IMG/VR virus record: IMGVR_UViG_3300032053_000007
From: a virus
Lineage: Duplodnaviria > Heunggongvirae > Uroviricota > Caudoviricetes
Length of the DNA stretch: 64,000 nucleotides
Direction: 5' to 3' (one strand)
Shown: one piece after another, positions 5,097 to 58,846 of the stretch
Layout: the number at the start of each line of letters is the position of its first letter
Position numbering within the stretch: position 1 is the first letter of the stretch
Program-made: the position numbers and the translations under genes
Notes under the pieces: generated by a model
Databases searched by the model: none
Told to the model about the DNA's origin: nothing
The model's input: only the letters and a program-made list of their open reading frames with translations

Positions 5097-5112
5097 TTAA
5101 TCAGTTGATTAA
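5097..5112. promoter_or_regulatory. palindromic operator-like site TTAATCAGTTGATTAA
   Basis: Perfect 7-2-7 inverted repeat about 20 nt upstream of the promoter module. Confidence 0.55.
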
Positions 5113-5133
5113 CTGGCATCATAACCTTTAAAT

Positions 5134-5170
5134 TGAGCATGGTTATTCTAGCGTAAGGTTTATAAGGGAC
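5134..5170 (+). promoter_or_regulatory. conserved promoter module
   Basis: TTGAGCATGGTTATTCTAGCGTAAGG-TTTATAAG-GGACG. Confidence 0.55.
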
Positions 5171-5204
5171 GGAGAGATTATAGTAGTTGGAGTATTGATG
5201 TATA

Positions 5205-5897
5205 ATGGCTCTTAATATAGATATGAGATTTTGGATTAACACGTTAATTTTCAATAATCTAGCTGAAATTTGTCCATTGCTAAGTCTTACTGGCGAAGAC
5301 CGAAAGGTTTATGAAATCTGCATTGAAGACTTTAAGAATTATACTGAATATCTTGACAGAAACCATATGAGTGTTGATAAACAAATATCTCAAGAGTTTC
5401 TACCTTCGCAACAAGTAATCATGGAAGAGATTATATCATTAATTGTAGAAAATTTTGGCGTAACCAAAAATTTGCAAGATATAAAAGACACAGAGGAATT
5501 TGTTCATTTTTGGGTTCAGTCGTGGTGGAAGAAATGGCAATATAGGACGAAAATTATTTTCAAAGACCAACCACATATGATTAATGTTAATTCACACTTT
5601 ACGGTGAATGATTTTACAGGAGAAGAACTTAACGAATTAACTCATGTCGTGACTGACAGACTTATACAATGTGGTGAGATATGCTGTGTCAACATTATGG
5701 CTGATGCCCTTATTAAGAAAGATATTCAAGCCGCTCAAAAATCAGAATGGACCGTTCAAGATAAACTTAATCTGATTCCAAGATTGCAAAGAGAAGTTAA
5801 GGAAATGAGTTATACCCACGGTCCACTCGTGTTCATTAAGGCAAACAAAAGTTACGGACTGAGGGAATGGCGGGATGGCTCAAACAAAATTATATAG
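5205..5897 (+). CDS. hypothetical protein (230 aa)
   Basis: Track ORF downstream of the promoter. Confidence 0.5.
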   Translation: MALNIDMRFWINTLIFNNLAEICPLLSLTGEDRKVYEICIEDFKNYTEYLDRNHMSVDKQISQEFLPSQQVIMEEIISLIVENFGVTKNLQDIKDTEEFVHFWVQSWWKKWQYRTKIIFKDQPHMINVNSHFTVNDFTGEELNELTHVVTDRLIQCGEICCVNIMADALIKKDIQAAQKSEWTVQDKLNLIPRLQREVKEMSYTHGPLVFIKANKSYGLREWRDGSNKII

Positions 5898-5973
5898 GCA
5901 AATCCATAATCACAAATTTCGACTTGGAAATAACAAATGCAGAGCGGCTTTAGGATGGTACACTCGTTTTATT

Positions 5974-6021
5974 ATGATGGCAATTAAATTTGTAGAAGAA
6001 GAAAAGGTTACGTTCACATGA
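5974..6021 (+). CDS. 15-aa leader mini-ORF ending in the junction motif (MMAIKFVEEEKVTFT)
   Basis: GAAAAGGTTACGTTCACATGA; stop overlaps ATG of the next gene. Confidence 0.3.
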   Translation: MMAIKFVEEEKVTFT

Positions 6022-6167
6022 AACCAAAAAATACATGGGGATGTATAATACCACCACCGACCACTCAATGTGGTAGTAATCATAGAGCATGTATGAGATG
6101 GTTTGTACGACTTGCTCACGAATATTACAACTATTTTCATAAAATAGAGAAGGTCCAATTCGATTGA
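6018..6167 (+). CDS. small Cys-rich protein, junction-motif family (49 aa, ...KVQFD)
   Basis: ATGA/TTGA coupling on both sides. Confidence 0.4.
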   Translation: MKPKNTWGCIIPPPTTQCGSNHRACMRWFVRLAHEYYNYFHKIEKVQFD

Positions 6168-6343
6168 AATGCCTTAATTGCGGTATCGAATTCGAATGTG
6201 ATGCCAAGTTTAAAGACTGTAGAACCAAAGAATGTTTCTGTAGAAAATGTTGGAAGAAAACTCGTTCGTATATTGAGAATCCCCATGCATTTGATGACTG
6301 TTATAAAGTTCGTGTAGAGTCTGAAAAGGTGAAGTTCGATTGA
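6164..6343 (+). CDS. Zn-ribbon protein, CxxCxxxFxC...CFCxxC family (59 aa, ...KVKFD)
   Basis: TTG start in TTGA overlap; paralog of the 35184 family. Confidence 0.4.
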   Translation: MKCLNCGIEFECDAKFKDCRTKECFCRKCWKKTRSYIENPHAFDDCYKVRVESEKVKFD

Positions 6344-6519
6344 TAAAAGAACTTAGAATACGTCCTTCGATGGTTCAAAGAATTTATTGGACAGACCGAA
6401 AGCCTTACTTCTTTATCGAGTTGTTTCTATTTTTAGATATTCCAGAGTTTCCAAAATACCCAGATGACATTATGGTTCTCGTCAATGAATGGTTGACCCT
6501 CTCATTGATTAGAAGTTGA
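6340..6519 (+). CDS. small hypothetical protein (59 aa)
   Basis: TTG in TTGA overlap; stop inside the TGAGCATGG module. Confidence 0.35.
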   Translation: MIKELRIRPSMVQRIYWTDRKPYFFIELFLFLDIPEFPKYPDDIMVLVNEWLTLSLIRS

Positions 6520-6555
6520 GCATGGAGTTTCTGACGCAAAGTTTAAATAGGACGA
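6516..6555 (+). promoter_or_regulatory. conserved promoter module (TATA variant TTTAAATA)
   Basis: TTGAGCATGGAGTTTCTGACGCAAAG-TTTAAATA-GGACG. Confidence 0.5.
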
Positions 6556-8956: not shown

Positions 8957-9174
8957 TATGTCCACATTGCAGAAAAGGAGAATTAGTAAATCCCAGACAT
9001 AACGTTCAACTAGATGCCGACCTTTATACTTGTAATGTTTGTCATCGTGGTTGGCATCAGGATAAAAAGAAGAGATGGCACAGTCACTTTGCGGCAGACG
9101 TTGAAGTATATAGTGAAAATGGGCATACTCTAATAGACTGTTCAACTTGGCACATAAATGAGGGAAGAAAATGA
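8953..9174 (+). CDS. Zn-ribbon protein (73 aa)
   Basis: CPHC...CNVC. Confidence 0.45.
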   Translation: MICPHCRKGELVNPRHNVQLDADLYTCNVCHRGWHQDKKKRWHSHFAADVEVYSENGHTLIDCSTWHINEGRK

Positions 9175-9596
9175 ACTGGCTTAAAAAAGCTAAAAAGAGT
9201 CTTAAAGAAAAATATAACCCCGATACACAGATAGATAAATGTGAATTGTGCGTATGTTGCTTCAAGAAATATAGAGAAGAATATGCCGTGGATTTTAACG
9301 ATGTATTTTTGAGGGCTTCTAATCTCGATAGTCGTATTAGTGGGGAATATTCACCTTATTACAACCTTATTAGGTTGAACAAAATGTATTTGAAACGTTT
9401 GTTCCAATTGAAAACCGTTGATGATGTAATTAGCCACGAGTTGGAACATGCATTAATTTATCGAATAATGCGGCGATTTGGTTTTTCAGAAGAAGTAAGC
9501 GATATTGGTTCTCTCTGTGTTTCCAAACCGTCACAATTTGATTTAAAAGATTTACGAGAGAAACTACATAAAAGGAAGCCAAAAAAATATGCCTGA
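9171..9596 (+). CDS. small HExxH metallopeptidase-motif protein
   Basis: VISHELEHALIY. Confidence 0.4.
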   Translation: MNWLKKAKKSLKEKYNPDTQIDKCELCVCCFKKYREEYAVDFNDVFLRASNLDSRISGEYSPYYNLIRLNKMYLKRLFQLKTVDDVISHELEHALIYRIMRRFGFSEEVSDIGSLCVSKPSQFDLKDLREKLHKRKPKKYA

Positions 9597-14785: not shown

Positions 14786-15229
14786 ATGGCTAGAATAAAG
14801 AAAAACATCAAAGGTATTCCGTTATTTTTATACGACTTTTTACAAATTTCCTTGTCAGCCTTCAAAGATTATTATCTAAAATTGAAGGTTTCTATAACAG
14901 GAGAAAATTATATTGGTCGTTATGTGGGAATCATTAGTTCATCTGAAAGACGACTTAGTTTTGAGAAATGCATAGCTGGTGGCTATACGGGGTATGTTCA
15001 GATAAAACTTTTCTCAAATCCAGATTGTGATGATTATGAAGAATGTGCAGAAGAAATTCTCAATCATGAAATACTTCATCAAGTGCTTGACAAAGTTGTG
15101 GGGCATGAAGCCAAAATGGGATTAGATAATATTCACAAGTCTTTCTATGTTCTCGATTGCAATGATAATAAGTGGCGGTTTGTGATAAAATTCATTAGCA
15201 AGAAAAAAGGGAATGTAGCCATTATCTGA
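14786..15229 (+). CDS. small HExxH motif protein
   Basis: ILNHEILHQVLDKVVGHE. Confidence 0.45.
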   Translation: MARIKKNIKGIPLFLYDFLQISLSAFKDYYLKLKVSITGENYIGRYVGIISSSERRLSFEKCIAGGYTGYVQIKLFSNPDCDDYEECAEEILNHEILHQVLDKVVGHEAKMGLDNIHKSFYVLDCNDNKWRFVIKFISKKKGNVAII

Positions 15230-15292: not shown

Positions 15293-15679
15293 GTGATTTC
15301 AATGTCATTAAAAGATAGAAAACAAAAAAGACAATATATGAAAGATTATTGGATAACTCATCCAGAGAAATATGCGGACCAAAAGAAATCCATGACAAAA
15401 TTTCATAGAAAACAAAGACAATCGTTGAGAGTTGAGATTATTCAACTGCTCGGTAGCAAGTGTTCTAATACAGATTGTCCTATTCCACCTGAAAAGATGG
15501 ATATTAGATGTTTGCAAATAGACCATATAAATGGAAACGGAAATAAAGAACGAAGTCAATTTAGCAATTATAACCAATGGTTGAAATTTATCTTACCAAA
15601 AATACAAGTTGGTTCTAAAGATTATCAACTTCTTTGTGCATATTGTAATTGGATAAAACGTTATACTGAAAAATCCTAG
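15293..15679 (+). CDS. HNH endonuclease
   Basis: CSNTDC...QIDHINGNG...N...LLCAYCNWIKR. Confidence 0.55.
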   Translation: MISMSLKDRKQKRQYMKDYWITHPEKYADQKKSMTKFHRKQRQSLRVEIIQLLGSKCSNTDCPIPPEKMDIRCLQIDHINGNGNKERSQFSNYNQWLKFILPKIQVGSKDYQLLCAYCNWIKRYTEKS

Positions 15680-15845
15680 TATAAAAACCTATCGCAAGAT
15701 GTAAATAGGCGTTATACGTGAATTCTTTTAATCATATGATTAAACTTTCAAAATGTGCGATTGGGCAAAAAGCGATTTCAAATCTTAACACCGTGGCTCT
15801 GCTCCGCACCATATGTTCAAACCGACTTATAAATGTTGCGGAAAT

Positions 15846-15885
15846 TGAGTATGGAGTTTCTAGCGCAAGGTTTATAAGGGACGAA
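15846..15885 (+). promoter_or_regulatory. conserved promoter module driving array 1
   Basis: TTGAGTATGGAGTTTCTAGCGCAAGG-TTTATAAG-GGACG. Confidence 0.55.
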
Positions 15886-15910
15886 AGACATTATTATTCC
15901 CAGATGGAAA

Positions 15911-16153
15911 ATGAGCGACAATCGTAAAACCCCATTCGGAAAACTCAACAGACGAGCAGAGCAAATTGCTGGTGATATTGATACAAAGAAGTTGGAAGAC
16001 GAGATTGGTGAGGCATTAGCAGATGCATGGCAAGCTGGCTATGACGAAGGATGCGGTACAGCACATGATGAGGGTTATCAGGAAGGAAAGGCAGAGGGCA
16101 TAAGGGAAGCCGAAGAGAAGTTTAAAGCCAAAGAGAAAGTGACGTTCACATGA
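15911..16153 (+). CDS. acidic small protein (...EKVTFT)
   Basis: Junction motif; ATGA. Confidence 0.5.
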   Translation: MSDNRKTPFGKLNRRAEQIAGDIDTKKLEDEIGEALADAWQAGYDEGCGTAHDEGYQEGKAEGIREAEEKFKAKEKVTFT

Positions 16154-16735: not shown

Positions 16736-16833
16736 ACAGAAAAGATATAGACTATCCTCTCATCTTTAGACGACTTCGCTGGTTTAAACGACTTGCTAAA
16801 GAATATCAGAAAGAAAAGGTGCAGTTCACATGA
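16732..16833 (+). CDS. 33-aa mini-protein (...EKVQFT)
   Basis: ATGA at both ends. Confidence 0.4.
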   Translation: MNRKDIDYPLIFRRLRWFKRLAKEYQKEKVQFT

Positions 16834-17102
16834 CAATCATACTTAAAAAGAACTTCAAGAAATGTCCTATGTGCGGCTCACGAAATTTAGCCCCTCATCT
16901 TCATAGCCAACATACTGAAAAGGAAGTACCGTGGGTTCGTTGCGAAGATTGTACGGCAATGTTTGTTAGAAGTTGTTCAAGTAATTCCCCAACAGAATCT
17001 ATTGTTATTTGGAATCGTAGAGGAAATGGCACTAAAATTGAGCCTGAAAGCACTAGCGTCTTTGTAACGCCAGAAGACCCAGAGGTTGTGCATTTTACAT
17101 GA
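16830..17102 (+). CDS. Zn-ribbon protein (...VVHFT); paralog of 19202
   Basis: CPMCGSRN...CEDC. Confidence 0.55.
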   Translation: MTIILKKNFKKCPMCGSRNLAPHLHSQHTEKEVPWVRCEDCTAMFVRSCSSNSPTESIVIWNRRGNGTKIEPESTSVFVTPEDPEVVHFT

Positions 17103-17774: not shown

Positions 17775-17998
17775 AACAACTCAAAGTTTTGCATTATGAT
17801 AAAGATTGTGGTTTGGTTCGTTTGACTACGCGAGAACATAGGTCTATACATTCTAATATTTGTTTCGGTTGTGGATATAATGGAGCAATAAAATGGAATT
17901 CTTATAACAAAGTTGTTCAATGTCACAATTGCGGACAGATAATAGCTAAACCAGAAAGTCATCCAGAATTAGAACGAGAGGTAGTGCAATTTACATGA
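17771..17998 (+). CDS. Zn-ribbon protein (...VVQFT)
   Basis: CFGCGY...CHNCGQ. Confidence 0.55.
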   Translation: MKQLKVLHYDKDCGLVRLTTREHRSIHSNICFGCGYNGAIKWNSYNKVVQCHNCGQIIAKPESHPELEREVVQFT

Positions 17999-18210
17999 CT
18001 GAACTACTAATTATTGGAATGATAAGTACAATTTGTGGTCTAATTATTGCAATGGTATTAGAGGCAAAAAGACAAAAACGCAAAATGATAAAAAGAGTAA
18101 GAATATATATCAAAGACCGTAATAAAACTTTACGTCTTTCAAAATGGAAAAGAATTGCTACTGAATGGAGAGAAGAATTAAAGAGACCTGTAAAGGTGAA
18201 GTTTACATGA
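17995..18210 (+). CDS. small membrane protein (...VKVKFT)
   Basis: N-terminal TM helix. Confidence 0.5.
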   Translation: MTELLIIGMISTICGLIIAMVLEAKRQKRKMIKRVRIYIKDRNKTLRLSKWKRIATEWREELKRPVKVKFT

Positions 18211-19868: not shown

Positions 19869-20104
19869 GAGCTAATTGGCTTAAAGGTAGAAAATGTGAC
19901 CGTTGTGGAAAAGAATCTGAATTGGTTTTAGGCAAATTTGAACATTTTCTTTGCAGAGAATGTAGTACAGAATGGGGTAATTTTATACAACCATTTCTTT
20001 CCAAACTTCATGATGTAGCGAGAACTCCTAAATGGTCTGAATTATGGGAAAAAATTTACGCCAAGTTTTTGGCTGAATGGATAGAGAAGGTACAATTCAC
20101 TTGA
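19865..20104 (+). CDS. Zn-ribbon protein, CxxC...LCxxC..W..F family (...KVQFT)
   Basis: CDRCGKE...CREC. Confidence 0.55.
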   Translation: MRANWLKGRKCDRCGKESELVLGKFEHFLCRECSTEWGNFIQPFLSKLHDVARTPKWSELWEKIYAKFLAEWIEKVQFT

Positions 20105-20978: not shown

Positions 20979-20994
20979 TTAATCAACTGATTAA
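20979..20994. promoter_or_regulatory. palindromic site TTAATCAACTGATTAA
   Basis: Perfect inverted repeat. Confidence 0.5.
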
Positions 20995-21310: not shown

Positions 21311-21326
21311 TTTAATCAACTGATTA
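21311..21326. promoter_or_regulatory. palindromic site TTAATCAACTGATTAA
   Basis: Perfect inverted repeat. Confidence 0.5.
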
Positions 21327-21392
21327 AAATAGTTCCTTTTATGACCTTCGGCATGGAGAAGTCCATGCAAACCAGCGATACTCATAGGGTTT

Positions 21393-25369: not shown

Positions 25370-25385
25370 TTAATCAGTTGATTAA
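25370..25385. promoter_or_regulatory. palindromic site TTAATCAGTTGATTAA
   Basis: Perfect inverted repeat. Confidence 0.5.
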
Positions 25386-25420: not shown

Positions 25421-25436
25421 TTAATCACCTGATTAA
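25421..25436. promoter_or_regulatory. palindromic site TTAATCACCTGATTAA
   Basis: Perfect inverted repeat. Confidence 0.5.
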
Positions 25437-27896: not shown

Positions 27897-28841
27897 ATGA
27901 GCGAAGAACAAAGTAAAAAAGAACTAGAGGAAAGAGCTAAATCTGTAATGGAGAGAATGGAAGAGATAATCGCTAAGGCTCAGAATGATGGAACGCTAGA
28001 GAGTTTTAACAAACCAATTCAACTTACTAAAGACTTTCTGACCACTAGACCGAACGATGCAAAGATAAAGACACAAATAGCATTATTCAAAAGCAGAACC
28101 TTCCTAGACAATTTCTTCTTAGACAAAGACGATAAACCTATGGGGGGCATTCCGAAAGTTGCACAGATAGGTGTGGTCGGAAACCCAGATGTCGGCAAGT
28201 CTTTAATCGCTCAGGAAGTTGCGCTCAGATTAGCTAGTGACGGAAACAAAGTTATTTTCACAACTAGCGAAGATATTTTCCAAGCTGACAACGACAGATT
28301 TGATTTGCAGAGTCGAATGAAACAGATGGCAACTTTTCTGGGACTGAGTTGGGAAAACATAAAGCAGAATCTTTTTGTGCTGGACGTTATTGCACACGGC
28401 GAACTTAGAGAATGGAATACACTTGTTTCAACTTATCGCGTACTCGTAGAACAGGAAAAGGCTGAGTTTCTAATTGTCGATTCGTTAACTCTCCTAGATG
28501 ATTATCGTGCTGGACTGAAATTCCACTTAGGCGAATTTGTCCGCTATAATCAGAAGAAAGGCGTGACAGGAATCTTTATCTCACAGAAAGCAAATGAGGA
28601 ATCAGTTGACCAACACGGACTTGCAGGGGGCATTGCATTAAGCCATTTGCTAGACGTGGAGTTTGAAATCAACTTTAAGAAACTCTCAAGTTGGGACGCT
28701 CAAATGAAAATCGACACCGAAGCAAAACAAGGCGAACTTCTACACTTCATACGGGTTCTCAAGTGTCGGCTAGGCAAGGCTGATATGCGATACCACAAAC
28801 TCCAAATAAGTAAAGATGGGATACTTCAATTAATCAAGTGA
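27897..28841 (+). CDS. RecA-superfamily ATPase (KaiC/RadA-like)
   Basis: Walker A GNPDVGKS, Walker B FLIVDSLT, KaiC-like GGIPKVAQIGVVG. Confidence 0.55.
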   Translation: MSEEQSKKELEERAKSVMERMEEIIAKAQNDGTLESFNKPIQLTKDFLTTRPNDAKIKTQIALFKSRTFLDNFFLDKDDKPMGGIPKVAQIGVVGNPDVGKSLIAQEVALRLASDGNKVIFTTSEDIFQADNDRFDLQSRMKQMATFLGLSWENIKQNLFVLDVIAHGELREWNTLVSTYRVLVEQEKAEFLIVDSLTLLDDYRAGLKFHLGEFVRYNQKKGVTGIFISQKANEESVDQHGLAGGIALSHLLDVEFEINFKKLSSWDAQMKIDTEAKQGELLHFIRVLKCRLGKADMRYHKLQISKDGILQLIK

Positions 28842-28846
28842 TTAAT

Positions 28847-31197: not shown

Positions 31198-31213
31198 TTA
31201 ATCAGGTGTTTAA
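31198..31213. promoter_or_regulatory. degenerate palindromic site TTAATCAGGTGTTTAA
   Basis: One mismatch in the right arm. Confidence 0.35.
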
Positions 31214-33388: not shown

Positions 33389-33404
33389 TTAATCAGTTGA
33401 TTAA
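33389..33404. promoter_or_regulatory. palindromic site TTAATCAGTTGATTAA
   Basis: Perfect inverted repeat. Confidence 0.5.
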
Positions 33405-33446: not shown

Positions 33447-33462
33447 TTAATCAACTGTTTAA
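33447..33462. promoter_or_regulatory. degenerate palindromic site TTAATCAACTGTTTAA
   Basis: One mismatch. Confidence 0.35.
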
Positions 33463-41624: not shown

Positions 41625-41729
41625 TCCCCTACCCCTAGCTACATTTGACAGGTAAATAGACTAGGGAAAAAGACGTTCTGGATGCTAGGGCGAAGCCAAT
41701 GGGAACTGAAGCCTGAAGTCGGTGCTTTT

Positions 41730-41745
41730 TTAATCAGTTGATTAA
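41730..41745. promoter_or_regulatory. palindromic site TTAATCAGTTGATTAA
   Basis: Perfect inverted repeat. Confidence 0.5.
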
Positions 41746-42164: not shown

Positions 42165-42180
42165 TTAATCAGGTGATTAA
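42165..42180. promoter_or_regulatory. palindromic site TTAATCAGGTGATTAA
   Basis: Perfect inverted repeat. Confidence 0.5.
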
Positions 42181-42229: not shown

Positions 42230-42245
42230 TTTAATCAAATGATTA
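42230..42245. promoter_or_regulatory. palindromic site TTAATCAAATGATTAA
   Basis: Arms perfect; spacer AA instead of CANNTG. Confidence 0.45.
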
Positions 42246-42341
42246 ATTTCAAAACTCGAAGCCTTTACATTCGAAGTCTGCGCGTTGCCGTTTTCCAAGA
42301 CTGATTTTCCAAAACGAACCCGAACGAAACCCAGATTCCAT

Positions 42342-42520: not shown

Positions 42521-42629
42521 TTGGGGGACACTACTTCGGGGCACAGTTAAACTCTAGGTGTAATAAAAGTTTCGACCATGCCTTTGACCATCAACATTTA
42601 AGTCACTCAGAGTGCAACCTTTCACTTTT

Positions 42630-42645
42630 TTAAACAGTTGATTAA
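42630..42645. promoter_or_regulatory. palindromic site TTAAACAGTTGATTAA
   Basis: One mismatch; 7 nt upstream of the promoter module. Confidence 0.45.
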
Positions 42646-42651: not shown

Positions 42652-42690
42652 CGAGCATGGTCGTTCTGGGGAAACCTTTATAAGCTACGC
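42652..42690 (+). promoter_or_regulatory. conserved promoter module
   Basis: CGAGCATGGTCGTTCTGGGGAAACC-TTTATAAG-CTACGCTGGCATCTATA. Confidence 0.55.
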
Positions 42691-42714
42691 TGGCATCTAT
42701 AAAGGTGTGGAAAA

Positions 42715-44896: not shown

Positions 44897-44912
44897 TTAA
44901 TCAGTTGATTAA
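44897..44912. promoter_or_regulatory. palindromic site TTAATCAGTTGATTAA
   Basis: 8 nt upstream of the promoter module. Confidence 0.55.
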
Positions 44913-44919: not shown

Positions 44920-44956
44920 GAACATGGTCTTTCTAAGCAAACATTTAAATAGGACG
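44920..44956 (+). promoter_or_regulatory. conserved promoter module (TTTAAATA)
   Basis: TGAACATGGTCTTTCTAAGCAAACA-TTTAAATA-GGACGCTGGCATCTATACT. Confidence 0.55.
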
Positions 44957-46937: not shown

Positions 46938-47300
46938 GTGTTTCAAATGAAATGTCAAGACTGTGAAAAAGAAACAAATACAAAATCTCAAAGATGTCCT
47001 GAATGCCAAAAGATATATCACCAAAAATGGCTAGAAGAATTAAAACTCTGGGCGATTCAAAAGTTAGGCGATAAGTGTTTTCATTGCGATAAACATTTTG
47101 ATTCTTGTGTTTATGATTTTCACCATGAAGGAAACGATACATGGCTTCGTTGCAATGAACAACAAAAAAATGCGAATCGAAGAGTAAAAGAATTGGTTCG
47201 TTGGAGAAGGGCAGAGAAAATTCCAGAGGACGTTCGATTAGTCTGCGCGAATTGTCACAGAATTATTAGTCATAAATCGTTTAATCACCTGATTAAGTAA
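46938..47300 (+). CDS. HNH endonuclease
   Basis: CFHC...DFHHEGND...N...LVCANCHRII. Confidence 0.55.
   Translation: MFQMKCQDCEKETNTKSQRCPECQKIYHQKWLEELKLWAIQKLGDKCFHCDKHFDSCVYDFHHEGNDTWLRCNEQQKNANRRVKELVRWRRAEKIPEDVRLVCANCHRIISHKSFNHLIK
47281..47296. promoter_or_regulatory. palindromic site TTAATCACCTGATTAA
   Basis: Overlaps the 3' end of the HNH gene; 7 nt upstream of the promoter module. Confidence 0.5.
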
Positions 47301-47302: not shown

Positions 47303-47340
47303 TGAGAATGGAGATTCCTAGCAAACGTTTATATAGGACG
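47303..47340 (+). promoter_or_regulatory. conserved promoter module
   Basis: TGAGAATGGAGATTCCTAGCAAACG-TTTATATA-GGACGCTG. Confidence 0.55.
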
Positions 47341-47352: not shown

Positions 47353-47368
47353 TTAATCAAGTGATTAA
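47353..47368. promoter_or_regulatory. palindromic site TTAATCAAGTGATTAA between TATA and start codon
   Basis: Second site flanking the same promoter. Confidence 0.5.
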
Positions 47369-47369
47369 A

Positions 47370-48059
47370 ATGGCTGACCAAAAAACGACAAACAAACTCA
47401 TCATAGACGAAAAGGCTCTTGAATCGTTAGGACTACACGGCGAAACGATTTATACAATAGAGTATGACCTTTACAGCGAGAAATATCTGACGGACGCGGA
47501 AAAGAAAAAGTTGACAAAAGAACAACGGGACGCAAACACGCGATTCAACAAACTTGCGCGAATTTTCAGAAACGCAATTGTGTTCGCTCTGAAATTCAAG
47601 CTGGACGCTGTGAAACATCTCGAAAGCAGTTGGCTTCTGGACGGCGATAAGCTGGACTTAGCTGTTGCAGAAATTGAAGAGATAAAGGCAAAGGCAAAGA
47701 GCAAAGGATTTGAGGACATCGACAGACGCATAAAAATCATTCCGATTTTCACGACCCCAGAAGGATTCGAAAACTACAAAGACAAGAAAGCAGAGTTCAT
47801 TCTTAACTTCATAATGGAACACGTCAAGATGGCAGAGGACGGGTTAAAAGACAAACGCATGGCTCAGAGCACACTTTGGAGATGTCGAAAAGCAGTTGAG
47901 ATTTGCAATTCACACATCGAAAGCATGAAGGGACACGAGCGATATAACGAAATGTTAGACACCGTGAATATGCTGGACGAATTGAACGGGCAATGCGAAA
48001 GTTTTCTCTGTGACCAAAAGGCAGAAAAGGCAAAGAAGAACAAGAAAGAAGAGGACTGA
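47370..48059 (+). CDS. hypothetical coiled-coil protein (about 229 aa)
   Basis: Track ORF 47361-48059; ATG at 47370. Confidence 0.5.
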   Translation: MADQKTTNKLIIDEKALESLGLHGETIYTIEYDLYSEKYLTDAEKKKLTKEQRDANTRFNKLARIFRNAIVFALKFKLDAVKHLESSWLLDGDKLDLAVAEIEEIKAKAKSKGFEDIDRRIKIIPIFTTPEGFENYKDKKAEFILNFIMEHVKMAEDGLKDKRMAQSTLWRCRKAVEICNSHIESMKGHERYNEMLDTVNMLDELNGQCESFLCDQKAEKAKKNKKEED

Positions 48060-49021: not shown

Positions 49022-49266
49022 CTGATTTGAAGAACGTAGCTCGAAAACTTGGGCATATTGGATTTGGAGTTCGAATTGAGGGGGACAAACTAATCGTTTA
49101 TGAGGGATGGATGAAAGATTGTCTGCTCATTCTGGGCGTTAAATCCTATAAGGACGGGCTGGCGAAGAGGGCGAAGCAATTAGAGGCTGAATATGGGCTT
49201 AAACTCGAAAGTTGTAAGATACGGAACAGTATTTCGAGAATGGTCTTTCTGGAACAACCTTTATAA
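49018..49266 (+). CDS. small protein (82 aa)
   Basis: 3' end carries TATA-like CCTTTATAAG for a downstream promoter. Confidence 0.45.
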   Translation: MTDLKNVARKLGHIGFGVRIEGDKLIVYEGWMKDCLLILGVKSYKDGLAKRAKQLEAEYGLKLESCKIRNSISRMVFLEQPL

Positions 49267-49284
49267 GTCACGGTGTTGTTCTAG

Positions 49285-49300
49285 TTAATCAGGTGATTAA
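49285..49300. promoter_or_regulatory. palindromic site TTAATCAGGTGATTAA just after the TATA
   Basis: Perfect inverted repeat. Confidence 0.5.
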
Positions 49301-49464
49301 TACGGGAAAACTTCATAGGATAAAGCGCAAACTCGCAAAACGCAAAGTCACGGGGGTCTGCCGTTGAACGTCCGAAAACTTAGACGTTTCTATTCAAGTC
49401 TGCCGACAGGCTCACATCACGGTCAACCGTTCGCACATGGCAAGTTTAGAGAGGGGTTGAAAGC

Positions 49465-49662
49465 GTGACGGATTTAAACTTAAAGGCTCTTCTGAAAAAT
49501 CACGATGTCCCTATTTGCATTGATGAGGCAGAATGTCCTCATAAGGTTCACAGAAAGAACCCCTATAAACCTCTATGCTTATTGCCTTTTCTTAACTATA
49601 AACATAAAGAATGCAAAGCGCAAAGATACCCAGACGCAAAGGAAAAGGTGAACTTTACATGA
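49465..49662 (+). CDS. Cys/His small protein (...EKVNFT)
   Basis: GTG start; CIDEAECPHKVH. Confidence 0.45.
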   Translation: MTDLNLKALLKNHDVPICIDEAECPHKVHRKNPYKPLCLLPFLNYKHKECKAQRYPDAKEKVNFT

Positions 49663-51948: not shown

Positions 51949-52275
51949 ATGATTCAGATGCGATTAAAGTCTATTGGAAATTTTGACGTTGAAATAAAAG
52001 AGAAAACTGAATCACAAAAAAAGAGACAACGAGAACAAATAAAAATGTGGGGAAAAAAACACCCAGAGCGAACTAAAATGAAGAATGCAAAACGGCGAGA
52101 ATTAGGGTTTGACCCTTTTAATGGGAGATTTATTGGCTCTGTTGCTCATCATATAGATTTTGAATGTGTTATCTATATTCCCAGAGAACTTCATATTTCT
52201 ATTCATCATTGCGTTTGGACAGGTCAGGGTATGGCAGAAATAAATGATAAAGTTTTCGAATGGCTTACCACATAA
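51949..52275 (+). CDS. possible HNH-like nuclease (low confidence)
   Basis: AHHIDFEC...N...HISIHHC. Confidence 0.3.
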   Translation: MIQMRLKSIGNFDVEIKEKTESQKKRQREQIKMWGKKHPERTKMKNAKRRELGFDPFNGRFIGSVAHHIDFECVIYIPRELHISIHHCVWTGQGMAEINDKVFEWLTT

Positions 52276-52305: not shown

Positions 52306-52321
52306 TTAATCAGTTGATTAA
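52306..52321. promoter_or_regulatory. palindromic site TTAATCAGTTGATTAA
   Basis: Immediately upstream of the promoter module. Confidence 0.55.
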
Positions 52322-52322: not shown

Positions 52323-52360
52323 TCGAACATGGACGTTCTAGGCGAAACTTTATATAGCGC
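52323..52360 (+). promoter_or_regulatory. conserved promoter module
   Basis: GAACATGGACGTTCTAGGCGAAAC-TTTATATA-GCGCGCTGTACT. Confidence 0.55.
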
Positions 52361-52369: not shown

Positions 52370-52385
52370 ATTAATCAGTTGATTA
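52370..52385. promoter_or_regulatory. palindromic site TTAATCAGTTGATTAA between TATA and start codon
   Basis: Same dual-operator layout as at 47.3 kb. Confidence 0.55.
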
Positions 52386-52398
52386 ATTGGTGAACGCG

Positions 52399-52782
52399 AT
52401 GAACACGGAGAAAATTTACTTCGATAACGCTGAACTCGATGGAACAGCTTTGGCTTCTGGGACTATTTCAAGATATGATACTAAAATTACCAAAGTTATC
52501 TATTCCATTGACGGTATAATCGCTGATGATATTGGTGCTGAGTTGTTCGTTCACGAATTCAATGAAGTTGCAATTTATGAAGTATTGAATCGAATTCTTC
52601 CATACGAAAGTTTATCAGCTATTTCTCACAACTTGAACGCTGAAAGCGATAACGAGTATGTAGAAGAGAGAAACCTTTTACATGGTTATGTAAAGAGCGA
52701 TAGACTTCCAGCTATTGACAAAGTTTTCACACAACAAGAAACAGACGAGTTTAGGGCAAGAGCAAACAAACCTAGACGATAA
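52399..52782 (+). CDS. hypothetical protein (about 127 aa)
   Basis: Track ORF 52387-52782. Confidence 0.45.
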   Translation: MNTEKIYFDNAELDGTALASGTISRYDTKITKVIYSIDGIIADDIGAELFVHEFNEVAIYEVLNRILPYESLSAISHNLNAESDNEYVEERNLLHGYVKSDRLPAIDKVFTQQETDEFRARANKPRR

Positions 52783-52784: not shown

Positions 52785-52820
52785 GAGCATGGACTTTTTC
52801 CCGAAACATTTATATACTTG
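52785..52820 (+). promoter_or_regulatory. conserved promoter module with no ORF downstream
   Basis: CGAGCATGGACTTTTTCCCGAAACA-TTTATATA. Confidence 0.5.
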
Positions 52821-52839
52821 ATTGACATCTGTAATAACA

Positions 52840-53090
52840 TGACGCACTCGCGTCTAACTAAAGGGCGCGTAAGACCGAAGGACGCACAACGTCCAAAAAC
52901 TTACCGACCCTTCAAAGTCGCTAGGGTTACGTTCGAAATAAGCGACAAGAACGGAACCGCACAAGACCGAAGGTTTGTCTCGCGGTAAAACGGGGCATTC
53001 CACCAACTTGTGCTTCAACTGACAAAAAAACCACAAACCACGTCCGAAAACGGGGCATGGCACACTCTCCATGCCCCCTCTCTCCTTTTT
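52840..53090 (+). ncRNA. candidate ncRNA A (GC-rich, ORF-poor, promoter-to-terminator unit)
   Basis: Internal repeats AAGACCGAAGG ×2 and AAAACGGGGCAT ×2; ends in a 9-bp hairpin plus T-tract. Confidence 0.35.
53052..53090 (+). terminator. intrinsic-terminator-like hairpin GGGGCATGG-N8-CCATGCCCC followed by a T-rich tract
   Basis: Perfect 9-bp stem, then CTCTCTCCTTTTT. Confidence 0.5.
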
Positions 53091-53128
53091 AAGTATGGTC
53101 TTTCTATGACAAGGTTTATATAGGACGC
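53091..53128 (+). promoter_or_regulatory. conserved promoter module (second ncRNA unit)
   Basis: AGTATGGTCTTTCTATGACAAGG-TTTATATA-GGACGCAGACATATTACT. Confidence 0.5.
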
Positions 53129-53149
53129 AGACATATTACTTTTGGGTTC

Positions 53150-53265
53150 GTGCGGAACACTCTCAGATAGTCGGCGAGTTAATGAGCCATGAAAAACCGC
53201 TAGGGTATGGGAGTTAGGCGTGGGTAATGGCACTCACGGTGTATCAGCCACACGAACTCACTAAT
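53150..53265 (+). ncRNA. candidate short ncRNA B
   Basis: Promoter followed by a GC-rich ORF-free segment ending at the next promoter module. Confidence 0.25.
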
Positions 53266-53300
53266 TGAATATGGTCTTTCTTAGCGAAAGTTTATATAGT
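53266..53300 (+). promoter_or_regulatory. conserved promoter module (third unit)
   Basis: TTGAATATGGTCTTTCTTAGCGAAAG-TTTATATA. Confidence 0.5.
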
Positions 53301-54449: not shown

Positions 54450-54485
54450 GTGCATGGACGTTCTACCACAATCTTTATATAGCTG
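54450..54485 (+). promoter_or_regulatory. conserved promoter module
   Basis: TGCATGGACGTTCTACCACAATC-TTTATATA. Confidence 0.5.
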
Positions 54486-54608
54486 TTTGATTATTGTATT
54501 ACTCGTATGAGCACGGGAACAAGGTTTCCAAACTACGTCCTTAGCTGACGAGTGATGGACGCTTATTGGAGAATCGTCCGTGTTCCGCGCTAATCTAAGT
54601 GGTCTAAA

Positions 54609-54746
54609 ATGATAACACTAAAAACCGTGATTAAGAAAGTAAAAGAGAACGCTGGCATAATCATGGCATTTGCCCCGATAGCCTTTTTCGTAGTTGTAAT
54701 AGCTCTAATACTTTCTGGAATACTCAAAGTTCACATTGAATTTTGA
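54609..54746 (+). CDS. small membrane protein (45 aa)
   Basis: Hydrophobic core; stop inside the TGAGCATGG module. Confidence 0.35.
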   Translation: MITLKTVIKKVKENAGIIMAFAPIAFFVVVIALILSGILKVHIEF

Positions 54747-54780
54747 GCATGGACGTTCTTAGGAAACCTTTATATAGCTC
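54744..54780 (+). promoter_or_regulatory. conserved promoter module
   Basis: TGAGCATGGACGTTCTTAGGAAACC-TTTATATA. Confidence 0.5.
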
Positions 54781-54800
54781 GGTGTTGTTGTTATTATCAA

Positions 54801-55031: not shown

Positions 55032-55068
55032 CGAGCATGGTCTTTCTACCACAACCTTTATATACCCG
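55032..55068 (+). promoter_or_regulatory. conserved promoter module opening an ORF-free island
   Basis: CGAGCATGGTCTTTCTACCACAACC-TTTATATA. Confidence 0.45.
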
Positions 55069-55336
55069 TTTGACATACTACTCTATCAAGGGCGAAGGGA
55101 TATTGTTCCATTTTTTCACCGTCCTTTCTCGCGCTTTCCCTTCGCCCGTTCTACTCATTCCTTCTAACCTCTCTAACCCTCTACAAACTTAGACGATTTC
55201 ACTAACACTTTTTGTTAAAGACCTCAGAACCCCCGACCCAGAGAGCCTTTACACTTTTTGATTTCACCACGTCAACCGAAACTGACCCAAGTTCTGCCCA
55301 AGCCGTCTTGAGCCTCTCTCACGAAACCCAGATTTT

Positions 55337-55352
55337 TAATCAACTGATTAAC
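55337..55352. promoter_or_regulatory. palindromic site TTAATCAACTGATTAA
   Basis: Perfect inverted repeat. Confidence 0.5.
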
Positions 55353-55672
55353 GAATCGTAGCTCGTAACGAGGCTGTGCACCCTTTACCCCGACCTCTAA
55401 CCATATAACACAAATTGTTAAGCAAATTCCCGAACCCCAGAGAACCCACGTCCGACCCCTAACCCAGACCCTCTAACGACCTCTAATCACTAACCCCCCC
55501 AAGAGAGCCATATACCCCCAAAAGTGGAGTCCATGCTTAAAAGAAATGCTCGATAAAAGATACTGATGACCTTTACATACGTAAAGGAAAGGGTTGTCAT
55601 ACGTAAAGGGTCTATGGAGTGGAATGTTGGCATACGACAACGGCGTGATTGACATAGTGCTGTAGCTCTATT

Positions 55673-55688
55673 TTAAACAGGTGATTAA
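55673..55688. promoter_or_regulatory. palindromic site TTAAACAGGTGATTAA
   Basis: One mismatch. Confidence 0.4.
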
Positions 55689-55813
55689 CGACCCCATTAT
55701 AAAGAAGTCCCCCCCCTCTAGCTCCCCTGAATGCCAAAACAAGCCTAGAAAAAAGACGTTTTGGCAAACGGTGACTTTATTATCCGAAAGGCTCGCGGAA
55801 CTGTGGAGAATTT

Positions 55814-55829
55814 TTAATCAGGTGATTAA
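55814..55829. promoter_or_regulatory. palindromic site TTAATCAGGTGATTAA
   Basis: Perfect inverted repeat. Confidence 0.5.
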
Positions 55830-56347
55830 GCAGGGCGAACCGACAGGTAGAAGGGACGGCGTGAACTCTCTGACCAGAAAATAATTGGAACCAAAAAAAC
55901 GCCTATGTGCGCTTATGTGATATTCTCAGTTGCATTCTATGGACAATTTCCTGTTAACCGAGGCGTTACCCCAAAAGTTGCACTTTTTGTTACACTAGAA
56001 GTTGTGCTAGACCAAAACGTTTATATACCCCCTATTTAAGCGTATCGCCGATAGCCTTATATAGTAGCTATTTAAACCTATCGGTTGCTTATATATGTGC
56101 AAACTTAGCAAAATTCGAACCATAAAGTACAACTCTCTATTATCACGTCCTTCGAACCATATACCGCAACTCTTATATAGATGCCATACTTACTTATAAA
56201 CGTTTGCCCAGAACGACCATGCTCGATTTAGAGGCTGATTCAGGGCGGAAACAACTAACGGAGCACACTTACAGATTCGAACTCGCGCCGATGACTAGCT
56301 CTGAGACTGATTAACTAAAACGAACGTCATCGAACGGTGAATTCATT

Positions 56348-56526
56348 AGGACTGATGACAATTTTGACGTTCTAACATTACCCCGAACTCCACGATTTAG
56401 CCTTATTCGACTAAACGGGGCGTACTCGCTCAATATCGTTGAGCAAATATAAAGGGAATTGAGCGTATTGCTCCGAACGACCCGCTCACAGGTTGATTTT
56501 AGAAAACGGGCATTATCCACAGTCCT
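56348..56526 (+). ncRNA. candidate structured RNA/repeat element, copy 2 (179 nt)
   Basis: AGGACTGATGA...CTCGCTCAATATCGTT...CGGGCATTATCCACAGTCCT; same length and termini as 42342-42520. Confidence 0.3.
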
Positions 56527-56783
56527 ACCCGCCATTGCTGGCGCGAACGGGCTTCGAACTTGGTTGTACTTTGAGTTACATTGAATATACATCATGCGTT
56601 ACTATGTAATATACGCTTAACGCGAACAACTCCAACTCTCTCAAACATACGTTCTCAGCGCACTATATATACGTTTGCTTTTTCCTGTACGACACATCTA
56701 CAAGTCAATGGTCGAACTGTTGGTTTAAGCTACACTTTAATGGAAACGTTTATAAGAGAGGGTGCGAACGTTATTCTAAGGAC

Positions 56784-57287
56784 GTGAAACACTTGAACGA
56801 TAAGGACGAATTGACACGACTTGAAAACTTAGCGCAAAAACTAGGTTTTACCGTGATATATAATTTAACCCTTAGCTGGAATCATTCGAAGGTTTCCTTT
56901 TATCCATGTCGAAGAATCCTTATCGGAACTAAGAACTATTCACCAAATTCAAATATCGGTTATGGAACCATACCTGATAAGGTTAAAGCGTTAATTCTGA
57001 ATCACGAGCTAGGGCATATTGTCGTATATGAAACGCTTTACCCTAACATGGATTTAGCTGATTTTTGTCTCTCAAATGATTCAAAATTCTTGGTACAACA
57101 AGAGATGTACGCATGGAAAACCGCAATAAATGAATCGCTCGATGATAATTCTGACCCTCTAGTGTTGGAATTGATACAAGAATCGATAAACCAATACATT
57201 TATTGTGAGTATATCGGAACATGCACAATAGAATCTCAGCAAGAACTACAGCAAAAAATAATTACTAAGTTTACACGTACAAAATAG
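56784..57287 (+). CDS. HExxH motif protein (167 aa)
   Basis: GTG start; LILNHELGHIVVYE. Confidence 0.5.
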   Translation: MKHLNDKDELTRLENLAQKLGFTVIYNLTLSWNHSKVSFYPCRRILIGTKNYSPNSNIGYGTIPDKVKALILNHELGHIVVYETLYPNMDLADFCLSNDSKFLVQQEMYAWKTAINESLDDNSDPLVLELIQESINQYIYCEYIGTCTIESQQELQQKIITKFTRTK

Positions 57288-57340
57288 TACACAAAGGTTT
57301 ATTAAGGACGGTGCTATTATACTCTTAAGGACGTGGAAAG

Positions 57341-57634
57341 ATGGTCGAAATAAAAATCTATGTCGTAACAACGGAAAACCCAGATAAGACAAAACTAGAT
57401 TCTGTGAAAGTTCAACTATGCGGTGCATTCGGCGGTTTAACCGTCATTAATAACTGTGAGGGTCTATGGCTAGATAACGGAAAATTATACGCGGACAACG
57501 TACAGATTTGGCTCATAGAAAGTTCAACTGTGGTTTCTCCTGAACAAATAATGAAATATGGTGAAGACTTAAAGGCAATATGCAAACAAAAATCTCAAAT
57601 GATAAGCATAAACGGACACCCATATTTTGTTTGA
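57341..57634 (+). CDS. hypothetical protein (97 aa)
   Basis: Variant promoter with TATA at 57293-57300 and leader TATACTCTTAAGGACGTGG. Confidence 0.5.
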   Translation: MVEIKIYVVTTENPDKTKLDSVKVQLCGAFGGLTVINNCEGLWLDNGKLYADNVQIWLIESSTVVSPEQIMKYGEDLKAICKQKSQMISINGHPYFV

Positions 57635-57702
57635 AACAATTTCCCTCTTTTTTTGATATAAACCTTTATATAGAACGCTGACATTATACTATTGAAGGAC
57701 GT

Positions 57703-58302
57703 GTGAACGTGGAACACTTACAACTTAGCGCAATATGCGAACACTTAACACAACTAGAGGACACGGACGCGGAAGGACTCTTCGATTTAAGCCTAGAATC
57801 ACAAGTGCAGTTCTTAGAATTCTTTAAACACTATAAGGACTGTGAAAAAGGCAAGGCTAAAGGAAAGGGCTTTGGAAATTGCTGGAAATTGAATTCTAAG
57901 CGTAATCCTAACGTATTTACCCATTTAGAGGCACAATTTAAGAGATTAGTGGACGACTTTAACCTAGAGTTGAACCATGAGGTACGCATAAAAGTTAAGG
58001 ATAGGTGCAACCGCTGGCACATTTTCAAATTAGACTTCTTTGACCCTAAGACCCAAATTGACATAGAAATAAGCCCAAATTGGCACAAGAATTACCTTTT
58101 AGTCGTAAGACGTGACGCATTGCGTAGAAGGCTCTTAAAACGGGTCGGGATTCGAAGTCTAACGGTTCCTGTAGTATATAAGGGCAAACACGGACACATA
58201 GATTATATAAGAGCGAAACGAATAATAAAGATAATCAAAAGTGCAACCGTCAGCCCTAACTCACTAGACTACTATACAACTAATAAAGAGGTGAATGAAT
58301 AA
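57703..58302 (+). CDS. hypothetical protein (199 aa)
   Basis: GTG start; TATA at 57665-57672. Confidence 0.5.
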   Translation: MNVEHLQLSAICEHLTQLEDTDAEGLFDLSLESQVQFLEFFKHYKDCEKGKAKGKGFGNCWKLNSKRNPNVFTHLEAQFKRLVDDFNLELNHEVRIKVKDRCNRWHIFKLDFFDPKTQIDIEISPNWHKNYLLVVRRDALRRRLLKRVGIRSLTVPVVYKGKHGHIDYIRAKRIIKIIKSATVSPNSLDYYTTNKEVNE

Positions 58303-58535
58303 TGGAATATTTCGGAAATTGTCCCAAATGCAGACACCACACGATAGTTAAATCCGTGAAGGCTATAAAAAGTGCAACTGCGAGACTACCACAGCGTACA
58401 AGCGAATGTATCAACTGCGGAACAACTGCAAGAATAACCATAATCGGCGAAATAGTTAAACTTGCAGGGATAACTAACGTGGTCAACCCAGAGTTTGCAA
58501 CGGTAAACAGACTTGTGGTGCGCCTGTGGAGTTAA
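58302..58535 (+). CDS. Zn-ribbon protein (77 aa)
   Basis: TAATG overlap; CPKCRHH...CINCG. Confidence 0.5.
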   Translation: MEYFGNCPKCRHHTIVKSVKAIKSATARLPQRTSECINCGTTARITIIGEIVKLAGITNVVNPEFATVNRLVVRLWS

Positions 58536-58830
58536 ACCACCGTGACATGCACGGTGCAACTTTCCCTTCTTTTTTTAGTACAACTTTCTATTAACTGAAA
58601 ACTTAGCGAATTTTTAATTTTCTTCCCTGTTCGAATATTGTCTTCGATTCACCACAATGACGTGCTATTGAACCATACTCTCCATTGTGATGAATTTGTG
58701 TCCCACTTCGAGGTATGGTCTTTTCCCATGCTTTTCTTCGAATGTTGACTTCGATTCATCACGAATTTTGGAAACATTGTTGGCATGGATGGAACGGTAC
58801 GGCGGAGCCGTGCGGCGAACTTAGCATTTT

Positions 58831-58846
58831 TTAATCAACTGATTAA
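58831..58846. promoter_or_regulatory. palindromic site TTAATCAACTGATTAA
   Basis: Upstream of the promoter for 58910. Confidence 0.5.

Follow-up and report, generated by a model that had tools for sequence, protein, structure and literature searches.

What is known of gene regulation in archaeal viruses comes from a few small crenarchaeal and haloarchaeal models. SvtR of SIRV1 and F55 of SSV1 are small viral ribbon-helix-helix (RHH) regulators that time expression through repeated sites at several promoters, some of which overlap the TATA box or the transcription start site (TSS). Operators of the ArsR/SmtB 12-2-12 type and of other winged helix-turn-helix (wHTH) dimers have a 2-nt centre and half-site centres about one helical turn apart, and are read by homodimers. 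We know of no work on regulation in the large uncultivated viruses of anoxic peat and sediment, in which hardly any gene has an annotation. For TrmBL1, a palindrome downstream of TATA leads to repression by blocking recruitment of RNA polymerase, and one upstream leads to activation (PMC4706686). The element described here is a 16-bp palindrome, TTAATCANNTGATTAA (the dyad), in the IMG/VR virus record IMGVR_UViG_3300032053_000007. The window, that is, the whole 64,000-nt stretch (64 kb) that was analysed, covers positions 14,168-78,167 of the 151,756-bp metagenomic contig ena:ERZ27247916:k141_6238898, and with its flanks ~79 kb of the contig was examined. We consider it likely that the dyad is the predicted operator of a sequence-specific, most likely dimeric regulator serving a subset of promoters of the archaeal BRE/TATA type (BRE, transcription factor B recognition element), because the dyads hold fixed positions beside or on promoters and are conserved in related genomes. 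It would then be a new operator motif with its own regulon in an undescribed virus lineage, a cis-element with a predicted reader.

The window contained 20 exact copies of the dyad, compared with 0.00 expected from 100 dinucleotide-preserving shuffles. When up to two mismatches were allowed, 24 dyads were obtained (20 exact, four with one mismatch and none with two) versus 1.11 expected, with a shuffle maximum of 4. The palindrome reported in an initial annotation of this DNA is therefore real and far exceeds a shuffled background. The sites listed in that annotation were essentially correct, with four positions off by one (now 21312, 42231, 52371 and 55336) and two sites, 42630 and 55673, carrying one mismatch (TTAAACA arm); 15728, 28830, 31198 and 33447 had been missed, the last two with one mismatch each. 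All 24 dyads lie in non-coding DNA or at gene edges, spread over 54 kb. Pipeline gene calls cover the surroundings of 17 dyads; 16 of these are intergenic, and the remaining one (47281) overlaps the last 20 nt of a gene. Many had been placed in islands free of open reading frames (ORFs); some of these islands hold small features, such as a conserved 43-amino-acid (aa) minus-strand gene with its own promoter cassette at 42098-41900. Island dyads are often paired, 49-81 bp apart, and they cluster, with four in 900 bp at 41.7-42.6 kb, three in 480 bp at 55.3-55.8 kb and, in the related locus L040, seven in 1.1 kb. No further copy was present in the 12 kb read downstream of the last dyad (58831), and the 7.9 kb upstream of the window held a single doubtful one-mismatch copy. 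A literature search for the dyad sequence returned only chance primer matches.

Substitutions were scored in 119 exact, 43 one-mismatch and 12 two-mismatch copies from the window and non-redundant relatives. Single mismatches fell at half-site position 5 in 26/43 copies and at position 7 in 14/43 (40/43 together), and positions 1, 2 and 4 were never changed, which points to a recognition core TTAAnC. The predicted full core is TTAATC-N4-GATTAA, with hexamer centres 10 bp apart. The central dinucleotide is free in the clade of the window (GT/AC 14, GG/CC 7, others 3); in a distant clade it is mostly AT and the dyad is extended to AGATTAATCAATTGATTAATCT. The likeness of the centre to an E-box (CANNTG), seen in the initial annotation, proved superficial, because the inner base of CA/TG is one of the two variable half-site positions and belongs to the least-conserved class (the 14 changes at position 7); L001 has TTAATCTACTGATTAA and TTAATCGGGTGATTAA.

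As a hairpin the dyad is weak, with a mean ΔG of -3 kcal/mol and only 0 to -0.6 in one-mismatch copies that are nevertheless retained, and a compensatory pair occurs in just one of the 12 double mismatches. Because mismatches cluster at positions 5 and 7, compensation is lacking and the stem is weak, this pattern indicates read-out by a symmetric protein, not a base-paired structure. The perfect inverted repeat could in principle act as an RNA or DNA hairpin, be it a terminator, a processing site or a repeat resembling repetitive extragenic palindromes (REPs) or miniature inverted-repeat transposable elements (MITEs), and the distant-clade extension to AAAAGATTAATCAATTGATTAATCTTTT formally resembles a bidirectional hairpin with a U-run. 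We regard this as very improbable. Besides the stem energies and missing compensation, the T-run in the window's clade stands 5' of the dyad, where an intrinsic terminator would not have it, and the window shows no enrichment of hairpin terminators. The dyad lacks the larger surrounding repeat unit that a MITE requires (repeat families holding it, D18 and D20, reach only into a short 5' flank or the promoter cassette), and Rfam gave no match.

Relatives of the window, such as IMGVR_UViG_3300035660_000003 and Ga0494785_000026, are frequent in peat, wetland and sediment metagenomes, on contigs of up to ~150 kb. The dyad occurs in them at 5-14 copies per ~20 kb down to ~45-50% identity of a VWA protein, and is absent from more distant relatives, several of which are GC-rich. 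In IMG/VR, a related 112-kb contig has at least 23 dyads, and an exact variant otherwise gave single background matches. Across nine orthologous promoters of a MoxR ATPase gene, the footprint gaaatt-dyad-7..9 nt-box-TATA persists, whereas the DNA further upstream is unrelated and the two bases at the centre differ. In an alignment of syntenic islands the dyads form invariant columns (41730 and 42231 among them), and at the promoter of a 229-aa protein gene an arrangement of two dyads is conserved in L001, L005, L026 and L044. At these three kinds of locus the arms are thus conserved while flanks or centre diverge. In a clade without the motif (~44% VWA identity), tandem TGTACA boxes with a 10-bp period were seen in non-coding DNA, once just past a TATA box, at two near-identical loci only (L035 5881-5906 and 6080-6095, and likewise L046); they may reflect turnover of operators between clades.

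The promoters to which the dyads relate share a cassette of ~55 nt, GAGCATGG-N3-TTCT-N~8-AA-NN-TTTATAWA-GGACG, found 28 times on the plus strand of the window (e.g. 961-1001, 3077-3117, 42653-42693, 54745-54785) and four times on the minus strand (e.g. 42098-42067, 56224-56193). The GAGCATGG box lies at about -54 to -47. It is missing from the promoters of a distant clade, and this clade-limited occurrence suggests that the lineage has a second promoter factor of its own. The AA-NN-TTTA part does not vary in any of the 28 cassettes, and start codons lie only 27-47 nt from TATA. No sigma70-type -10 hexamer fits any of the 28, because the last hexamer base is never T, and sigma70-like promoters and hairpin terminators are not enriched in the window. 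The sequence TTTATATA corresponds to the methanogen 'A box', a pattern reported as confined to methanogens (PMC2699501). These features taken together are our reason for viewing the element as probably an undescribed large virus, or virus-like element, of a methanogen-like archaeon.

A bacteriophage with a factor-dependent promoter would offer another account, in which GAGCATGG acts like a MotA box near -35, the TATA-like sequence is the -10 element, and the dyads fall at about -54 (as for a class-I activator) and about +17 (as a roadblock). The gene content has a large-phage flavour (ribonucleotide reductase, dCMP deaminase, RNA ligase, CobS/CobT-like MoxR and VWA proteins, HNH), and Shine-Dalgarno-like sequences begin as little as 26-34 nt past the start of TATA, a spacing more comfortable for a TSS at about +15 than for one at about +30. 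Against this, the invariant AA-NN-TTTATAWA has the form of an archaeal BRE/TATA, the last base of the hexamer excludes a standard -10, and only one of 13 terminator-like sites lies on the coding strand. Window ORFs match families of the DUF74xx/DUF75xx type by Pfam (DUF7417 at E = 6e-23), which we take to be archaeal. A scan of genome contigs found a relative, its sole match, in the metagenome-assembled genome (MAG) of an 'uncultured archaeon', in addition to three relatives in IMG/VR, and GenBank phages gave no DNA or protein match to the region, to the 575-aa VWA protein or to the 229-aa protein. An operator in a bacteriophage is in our estimate unlikely, and a bacterial setting in general hardly more probable.

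With the TSS predicted 30 nt past the TATA start, the 121 non-redundant dyads contain two sharp classes, one with TATA starting 45-49 nt after the start of the site (12 dyads) and one with TATA starting 21-25 nt before it (7 dyads). In the window the centres of the first class lie at -69.5 or -65.5 and those of the second at +2.5 or -0.5 (Table 1). The gap between dyad and GAGCATGG box is exactly 7 nt in 13/25 cases. The initial annotation had given it as 7-10 nt, which holds at 42630, 44897 and 47281 (7 nt), not at 52306 (3 nt) or 5097 (22 nt); it had correctly seen the second copies between TATA and ATG at 47353 and 52371 (earlier 52370) and the copy just past a TATA at 49285. Promoters with both an upstream and a TSS dyad serve the 229-aa gene and a 127-aa gene. 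Looping, which the annotation had proposed for such arrangements, is possible, although dyad pairs spaced 49-81 bp apart show no strict helical periodicity.

Table 1. Dyads and dyad-associated promoter cassettes in the window. Centres are relative to the predicted TSS.
Feature	Position	Strand	Sequence	Centre	Context
Dyad	5097..5112		exact, TTAATCAGTTGATTAA	~-84.5	22 nt 5' of GAGCATGG box, promoter of gene 5205-5897
Dyad	15728..15743		exact, centre TA		gap between HNH gene 15293-15679 and cassette 15847-15878
Dyad	20979..20994		exact		non-coding island 20.6-21.4 kb
Dyad	21312..21327		exact		island 20.6-21.4 kb; 66 nt 5' of box, promoter 21394-21425
Dyad	25370..25385		exact		first of pair 51 bp apart, AT-rich island 25.0-25.8 kb
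Dyad	25421..25436		exact		second of the 51-bp pair, same island
Dyad	28830..28845		exact		overlaps stop codon of KaiC-like ATPase gene 27897-28841
Dyad	31198..31213		one mismatch (TGTTTAA arm), TTAATCAGGTGTTTAA		between a stop codon and the GTG start at 31216
Dyad	33389..33404		exact		first of pair 58 bp apart, upstream of promoter 33508-33539 and gene 33563-33853
Dyad	33447..33462		one mismatch		second of the 58-bp pair
Dyad	41730..41745		exact		convergent junction of plus-strand operon end and small minus-strand unit
Dyad	42165..42180		exact		between divergent promoters: minus-strand cassette 42098-42067 and plus-strand VWA promoter
Dyad	42231..42246		exact		66 bp from 42165, between the same divergent promoters
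Dyad	42630..42645		one mismatch (TTAAACA arm)	-69.5	7 nt 5' of GAGCATGG box, VWA promoter; variant also kept in relative L013
Dyad	44897..44912		exact	-69.5	7 nt 5' of box, MoxR/AAA_5 gene promoter
Dyad	47281..47296		exact	-69.5	upstream half of dual site; overlaps last 20 nt of HNH gene 46938-47300
Dyad	47353..47368		exact	+2.5	between TATA and ATG, on predicted TSS
Dyad	49285..49300		exact	+2.5	just 3' of TATA, on predicted TSS; conserved in L005
Dyad	52306..52321		exact	-65.5	3 nt 5' of box, upstream half of dual site; 31 nt past HNH-like gene 51949-52275
Dyad	52371..52386		exact	-0.5	between TATA and ATG
Dyad	55336..55351		exact		non-coding island 55.2-56.6 kb
Dyad	55673..55688		one mismatch (TTAAACA arm)		island 55.2-56.6 kb
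Dyad	55814..55829		exact		island 55.2-56.6 kb; left of minus-strand hairpin plus T-run (55914-55897)
Dyad	58831..58846		exact	~-58.5	20 nt 5' of TATA 58867-58874, gene 58910-59170; promoter without GAGCATGG box
Cassette	42653..42684	+	GAGCATGG box to TTTATAAG		VWA gene 42715-44442
Cassette	44920..44951	+			MoxR-like ATPase gene 44986-45873
Cassette	47304..47335	+			229-aa core gene 47370-48059
Cassette	49236..49267	+			followed by ~320 nt without ORF (conserved leader or non-coding RNA)
Cassette	52325..52356	+			gene 52399-52782 (127 aa)

The dimeric repressor or activator proposed in the initial annotation agrees with the conserved arms and free centre, the lack of compensation, the two position classes and the conserved dual sites. 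Binding by a protein and the sign of its effect we infer from these patterns. At dyads centred on the predicted TSS (47353, 49285, 52371), a bound regulator would block recruitment of RNA polymerase by TATA-binding protein and transcription factor B, resulting in repression. Dyads ~7 nt 5' of the virus-specific GAGCATGG box (42630, 44897, 47281, 52306; about -66 to -70) would serve in activation or assist cooperative repression, and the promoters with both kinds of dyad would switch most tightly. Distal and paired island dyads could be auxiliary or reservoir sites, or could control divergent and non-coding units. The effect would thus depend on dyad position, as with TrmBL1.

Several observations weigh against the operator interpretation. 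A fixed position relative to BRE, TATA or TSS holds for only ~20 of the 121 dyads; the other ~100 are not promoter-proximal, and the island majority is without an explained function. The TSSs derive from TATA geometry, and a bacterial host would shift the dyads to the ~-54 and ~+17 positions given above. The host domain, too, stays a prediction, since a single 'uncultured archaeon' MAG, assigned by binning, holds a relative. Dyad positions turn over in close relatives, for example at the VWA promoter of L023, where the dyad is on the TSS and not at -69, so individual dyads are not strictly essential. A pure operator model does not predict the significant association with HNH genes (see below), and the cognate factor was not found in the ~79 kb examined, where candidates either failed or gave no clear answer.

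The search for the factor used Pfam with every plausible window ORF in joined pseudo-proteins and with site-adjacent proteins singly at E <= 10. Pfam detected no helix-turn-helix (HTH), RHH or wHTH domain in the ORFs of the window, as the initial annotation had noted for HTH and RHH genes, and no recognisable HTH or RHH protein was present in the ~79 kb of contig. The HTH-looking ORF 15735-15927, whose ATG lies inside the dyad at 15728, was rejected; its 'EYGVSSARFIRDERH' stretch is the translated promoter cassette at 15847. The annotation had suggested that a small unannotated protein might be the factor. The structure predicted for one such ORF, the RHH-looking w3142, was a confident model without an RHH match, and neither w3142 nor w5205 is supported as the factor. 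The wHTH proteins next to dyads in L025 (1226-1756, DUF7347) and L152 (7169-7564, reverse complement) are not conserved in the window or other loci. The 229-aa protein was considered as an autoregulator; it is a core gene present also in motif-less relatives, so this idea is unsupported, and in distant clades it lies in an operon directly 3' of MoxR. The factor may have an unrecognised fold, may be encoded in the other ~73 kb of the contig, or may be supplied by the host.

HNH family genes identified by jackhmmer were within 120 bp of a dyad in 15/29 cases; among other genes the figure was 68/331 (odds ratio 4.1, P = 4e-4), and the window alone gave 4/4 and 18/137. The window members are 4755-5030, 15293-15679, 46938-47300 and 51949-52275, and PHROGs confirmed the HNH assignment of w46938 (1e-8), w15293 (2e-8) and w4755 (2e-4). 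The usual order is HNH gene, palindrome, next promoter. Members occupy dyad-adjacent spots that differ between relatives; L001 has at least eight copies, two of them beside the dyad of the VWA promoter, where the window has none. Homology breakpoints show a modest enrichment at dyads, with 11/35 intergenic ends of high-scoring segment pairs versus 13% expected. The link could reflect homing next to the dyad, or a shared preference for operon boundaries.

On a strict homing account, the dyad or its enclosing block would be the recognition or landing site of free-standing HNH endonucleases, or the cargo of mobile cassettes, and the number and distribution of dyads would reflect endonuclease gene mobility instead of transcription control. 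The significant adjacency, the confirmed and variably placed HNH genes and the breakpoint enrichment speak for it. We nevertheless find it improbable: 20 of the 24 window dyads have no HNH neighbour, neither a target nor cargo needs exact TATA-relative positions, including those between TATA and ATG, and 24 intact targets would risk self-cleavage of the genome. The HNH paralogues hit a variety of PHROG families, and this diversity makes one common 16-bp specificity unlikely; the association may also be indirect, given that both features favour operon boundaries. A combined role, in which a virus-wide timing operator read by an unrecognised DNA-binding fold doubles as an insertion landmark for HNH genes beside promoters and so couples regulation to mobility in large (~110-150 kb) viruses of methanogen-like archaea, would also be possible and is in our view speculative.

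The breakpoints also bear on modular exchange. Promoter-early stem-loops (PeSLs) of T4-type phages are conserved units of promoter and stem-loop that mediate modular shuffling (PMC2839356). A comparable mobile cassette or module boundary here would consist of T-run, palindrome and promoter, acting as a terminator or insulator joined to a promoter and providing, as its chief evolutionary role, short homologies for the shuffling of small genes. Dozens of small ORFs are indeed split by the repeated cassettes (28 on the plus strand), a T-run of at least four precedes the palindrome before some cassettes and is found at 12/24 dyads, and homology between relatives often begins at the left flank of the palindrome. 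The stem-loop is, however, too weak for a terminator, one-mismatch copies persist despite losing the stem, and archaeal termination requires no hairpin. The dyad accompanies a minority of the cassettes and many dyads have no cassette, while exact arms kept across 50%-diverged genomes without compensation favour a trans-acting reader. Such a unit is in our judgement improbable. Module shuffling as such fits the data, yet more likely arises here as a side effect of a repeated operator, as recombination could at any operator of this kind.

The island dyads raise the question of replication-origin, partition (centromere-like) or genome-architecture sites, bound by an initiator, a ParB/SegB-like or a nucleoid-organising protein. 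Most dyads lie in non-coding islands in pairs or clusters, the surroundings of the 25.4-kb pair are AT-rich, the GC skew shifts near 52-56 kb, and parS sites have the same format of a 16-bp palindrome. Yet the ~79 kb examined showed no ParA, Orc1/Cdc6 or Rep gene, the sole ParB_N protein is a 93-aa domain beside sugar enzymes ~12 kb upstream of the first dyad, the dyads span 54 kb and not one locus, they bear no likeness to ORB elements, and precise registration with TATA would not be expected. Like hairpins, origin and partition sites fit the data poorly, and we hold them to be quite improbable. At ~52-56 kb the skew passes from strongly positive (0.1-0.3) to about zero or slightly negative while genes remain on the plus strand, and this compositional boundary coincides with the largest non-coding island.

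Nearly all genes of the window are small, on the plus strand and without annotation. The identifiable ones encode a VWA protein, a MoxR/AAA_5 ATPase, an RNA ligase, a KaiC-like ATPase, an SPFH protein and glycosyltransferases; directly outside lie ribonucleotide reductase, dCMP deaminase, HNH and sugar-nucleotide enzymes. A conserved core trio consists of the VWA protein, the MoxR ATPase and the helical 229-aa protein (42715-44442, 44986-45873 and 47370-48059); it persists even where relatives have only 25-40% identity and another GC content. The MoxR ATPase has only distant CobS-like matches. Several VWA homologues (P0005, P0011, P0018-P0020, P0059 and L001 10001-12763) contain inteins with LAGLIDADG_3 or Intein_splicing domains and measure 900-920 aa versus 575 aa, and P0076 joins a VWA fragment to topoisomerase VI-B-type domains. 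At least five small paralogous HExxH proteins (SprT/minimal zincin-like) are scattered over the window (9171-9596, 14786-15229, 20077-20385, 56784-57287, 60025-60498). No tRNA was found in the region, no Rfam family matched, even at permissive thresholds on the non-coding islands, and our literature search found no paper on this lineage.

Further observations concern the cassettes and islands. Cassettes without a downstream ORF and conserved non-coding stretches occur at 52785-53300, 54450-54600, 55033-56600 and 49260-49610; these are probably non-coding RNAs or long leaders, without an Rfam match, and the leader after 49285 is conserved in L005. The 43-aa gene in the 42-kb island (42031-41900, minus strand), one of very few on that strand, encodes one transmembrane helix and an acidic tail and is present in L001, L005, L013 and L027. 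Island modules recur three times (20590-20800, 41634-41850, 55700-55930), namely gtcccctacccctagct...aaaaagacgtt, ccaaaatc(a/t)aatt and gcctatgtgcgc(t)tatgtg; the third of these forms a minus-strand hairpin plus T-run (41830-41815, 55914-55897). Two related non-coding segments of ~250 nt (42285-42560 and 56300-56560) have complementary ends (aggactgatg ... cattatccacagtcct) and are possibly structured RNA, and a degenerate remnant at 56309 consists of a half-dyad and a 'ctaaaacGA' box.

Translation signals form a separate set of repeats. At 31198 the AGGTG centre of the dyad lies 7 nt 5' of the start codon (GTG) of gene 31216-31485 and could double as a Shine-Dalgarno sequence; dyad variants with a CAGGTG centre contain a perfect Shine-Dalgarno core (AGGTGAT), and a start codon follows only at this site. 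A gene-junction cassette, GAraAGGTGcAaTTyAC(A/T)TGA, recurs at 16-28, 36-44 and 48-52 kb (e.g. 16798-16834, 17972-18001, 40736-40773); its TTYACWTGA part occurs 70 times on the plus strand versus 4 on the minus strand, and V-x-F-[T/D/S] ('EKVQFT') ends 70/195 ORFs. The cassette supplies an AGGTG Shine-Dalgarno sequence ~9 nt 5' of an ATG or TTG start, which in turn overlaps the TGA stop. The C-termini of dozens of small Zn-ribbon proteins are thus dictated by a signal for translational coupling. In the distant 112-kb relative the tail is analogous but different ('KVKVILI').

Together, the dyad and the long cassette would provide a concrete regulatory code for a genome of this kind. The dyad delimits a putative regulon comprising the VWA/MoxR/229-aa core trio, several ORFans and non-coding units, and it could serve as bait for the regulator (DNA-affinity purification or DAP-seq) and as a marker of the lineage in metagenomes. 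A viral factor with a new fold, or a causal HNH link, would give the finding interest beyond this lineage; as just another repressor operator, the dyad would be a useful and unsurprising annotation.

Compared with described systems, the dyad resembles a eukaryotic E-box in the letters CA-NN-TG only, and we know of no basic helix-loop-helix proteins in archaea or archaeal viruses. It is like parS in being a multicopy 16-bp palindrome clustered in non-coding DNA, and differs in that neither ParA nor a full-length ParB accompanies it and that the dyads are TATA-registered and dispersed from 5 to 59 kb, so it does not group with ParB/parS systems. With the PeSL cassettes it has in common a repeated promoter and palindrome among small ORFan genes, at homology breakpoints; those are effective terminators with sigma70 promoters, whereas here the hairpin is marginal, the promoters are of the BRE/TATA type, and the palindrome is on a subset of cassettes only and also overlaps TSSs. 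ArsR/SmtB-type operators have the same inverted-repeat format with a 2-nt centre, without sequence similarity and without an ArsR-like protein in the window. The viruses of SvtR and F55 have far fewer operators and identifiable RHH genes, as against 24 sites over 54 kb here. The closest counterpart is the TGM operator of TrmBL1/Tgr in Thermococcales (TATCAC-N5-GTGATA), which likewise lies upstream of BRE/TATA or downstream of TATA. The present motif differs in sequence and spacing (TTAATC-N4-GATTAA), in its viral setting and in its many promoter-distal copies, and with no TrmB-family (PF01978) or other HTH protein detected in the window it falls outside the TrmB/TGM system, yet it would work in a like manner.

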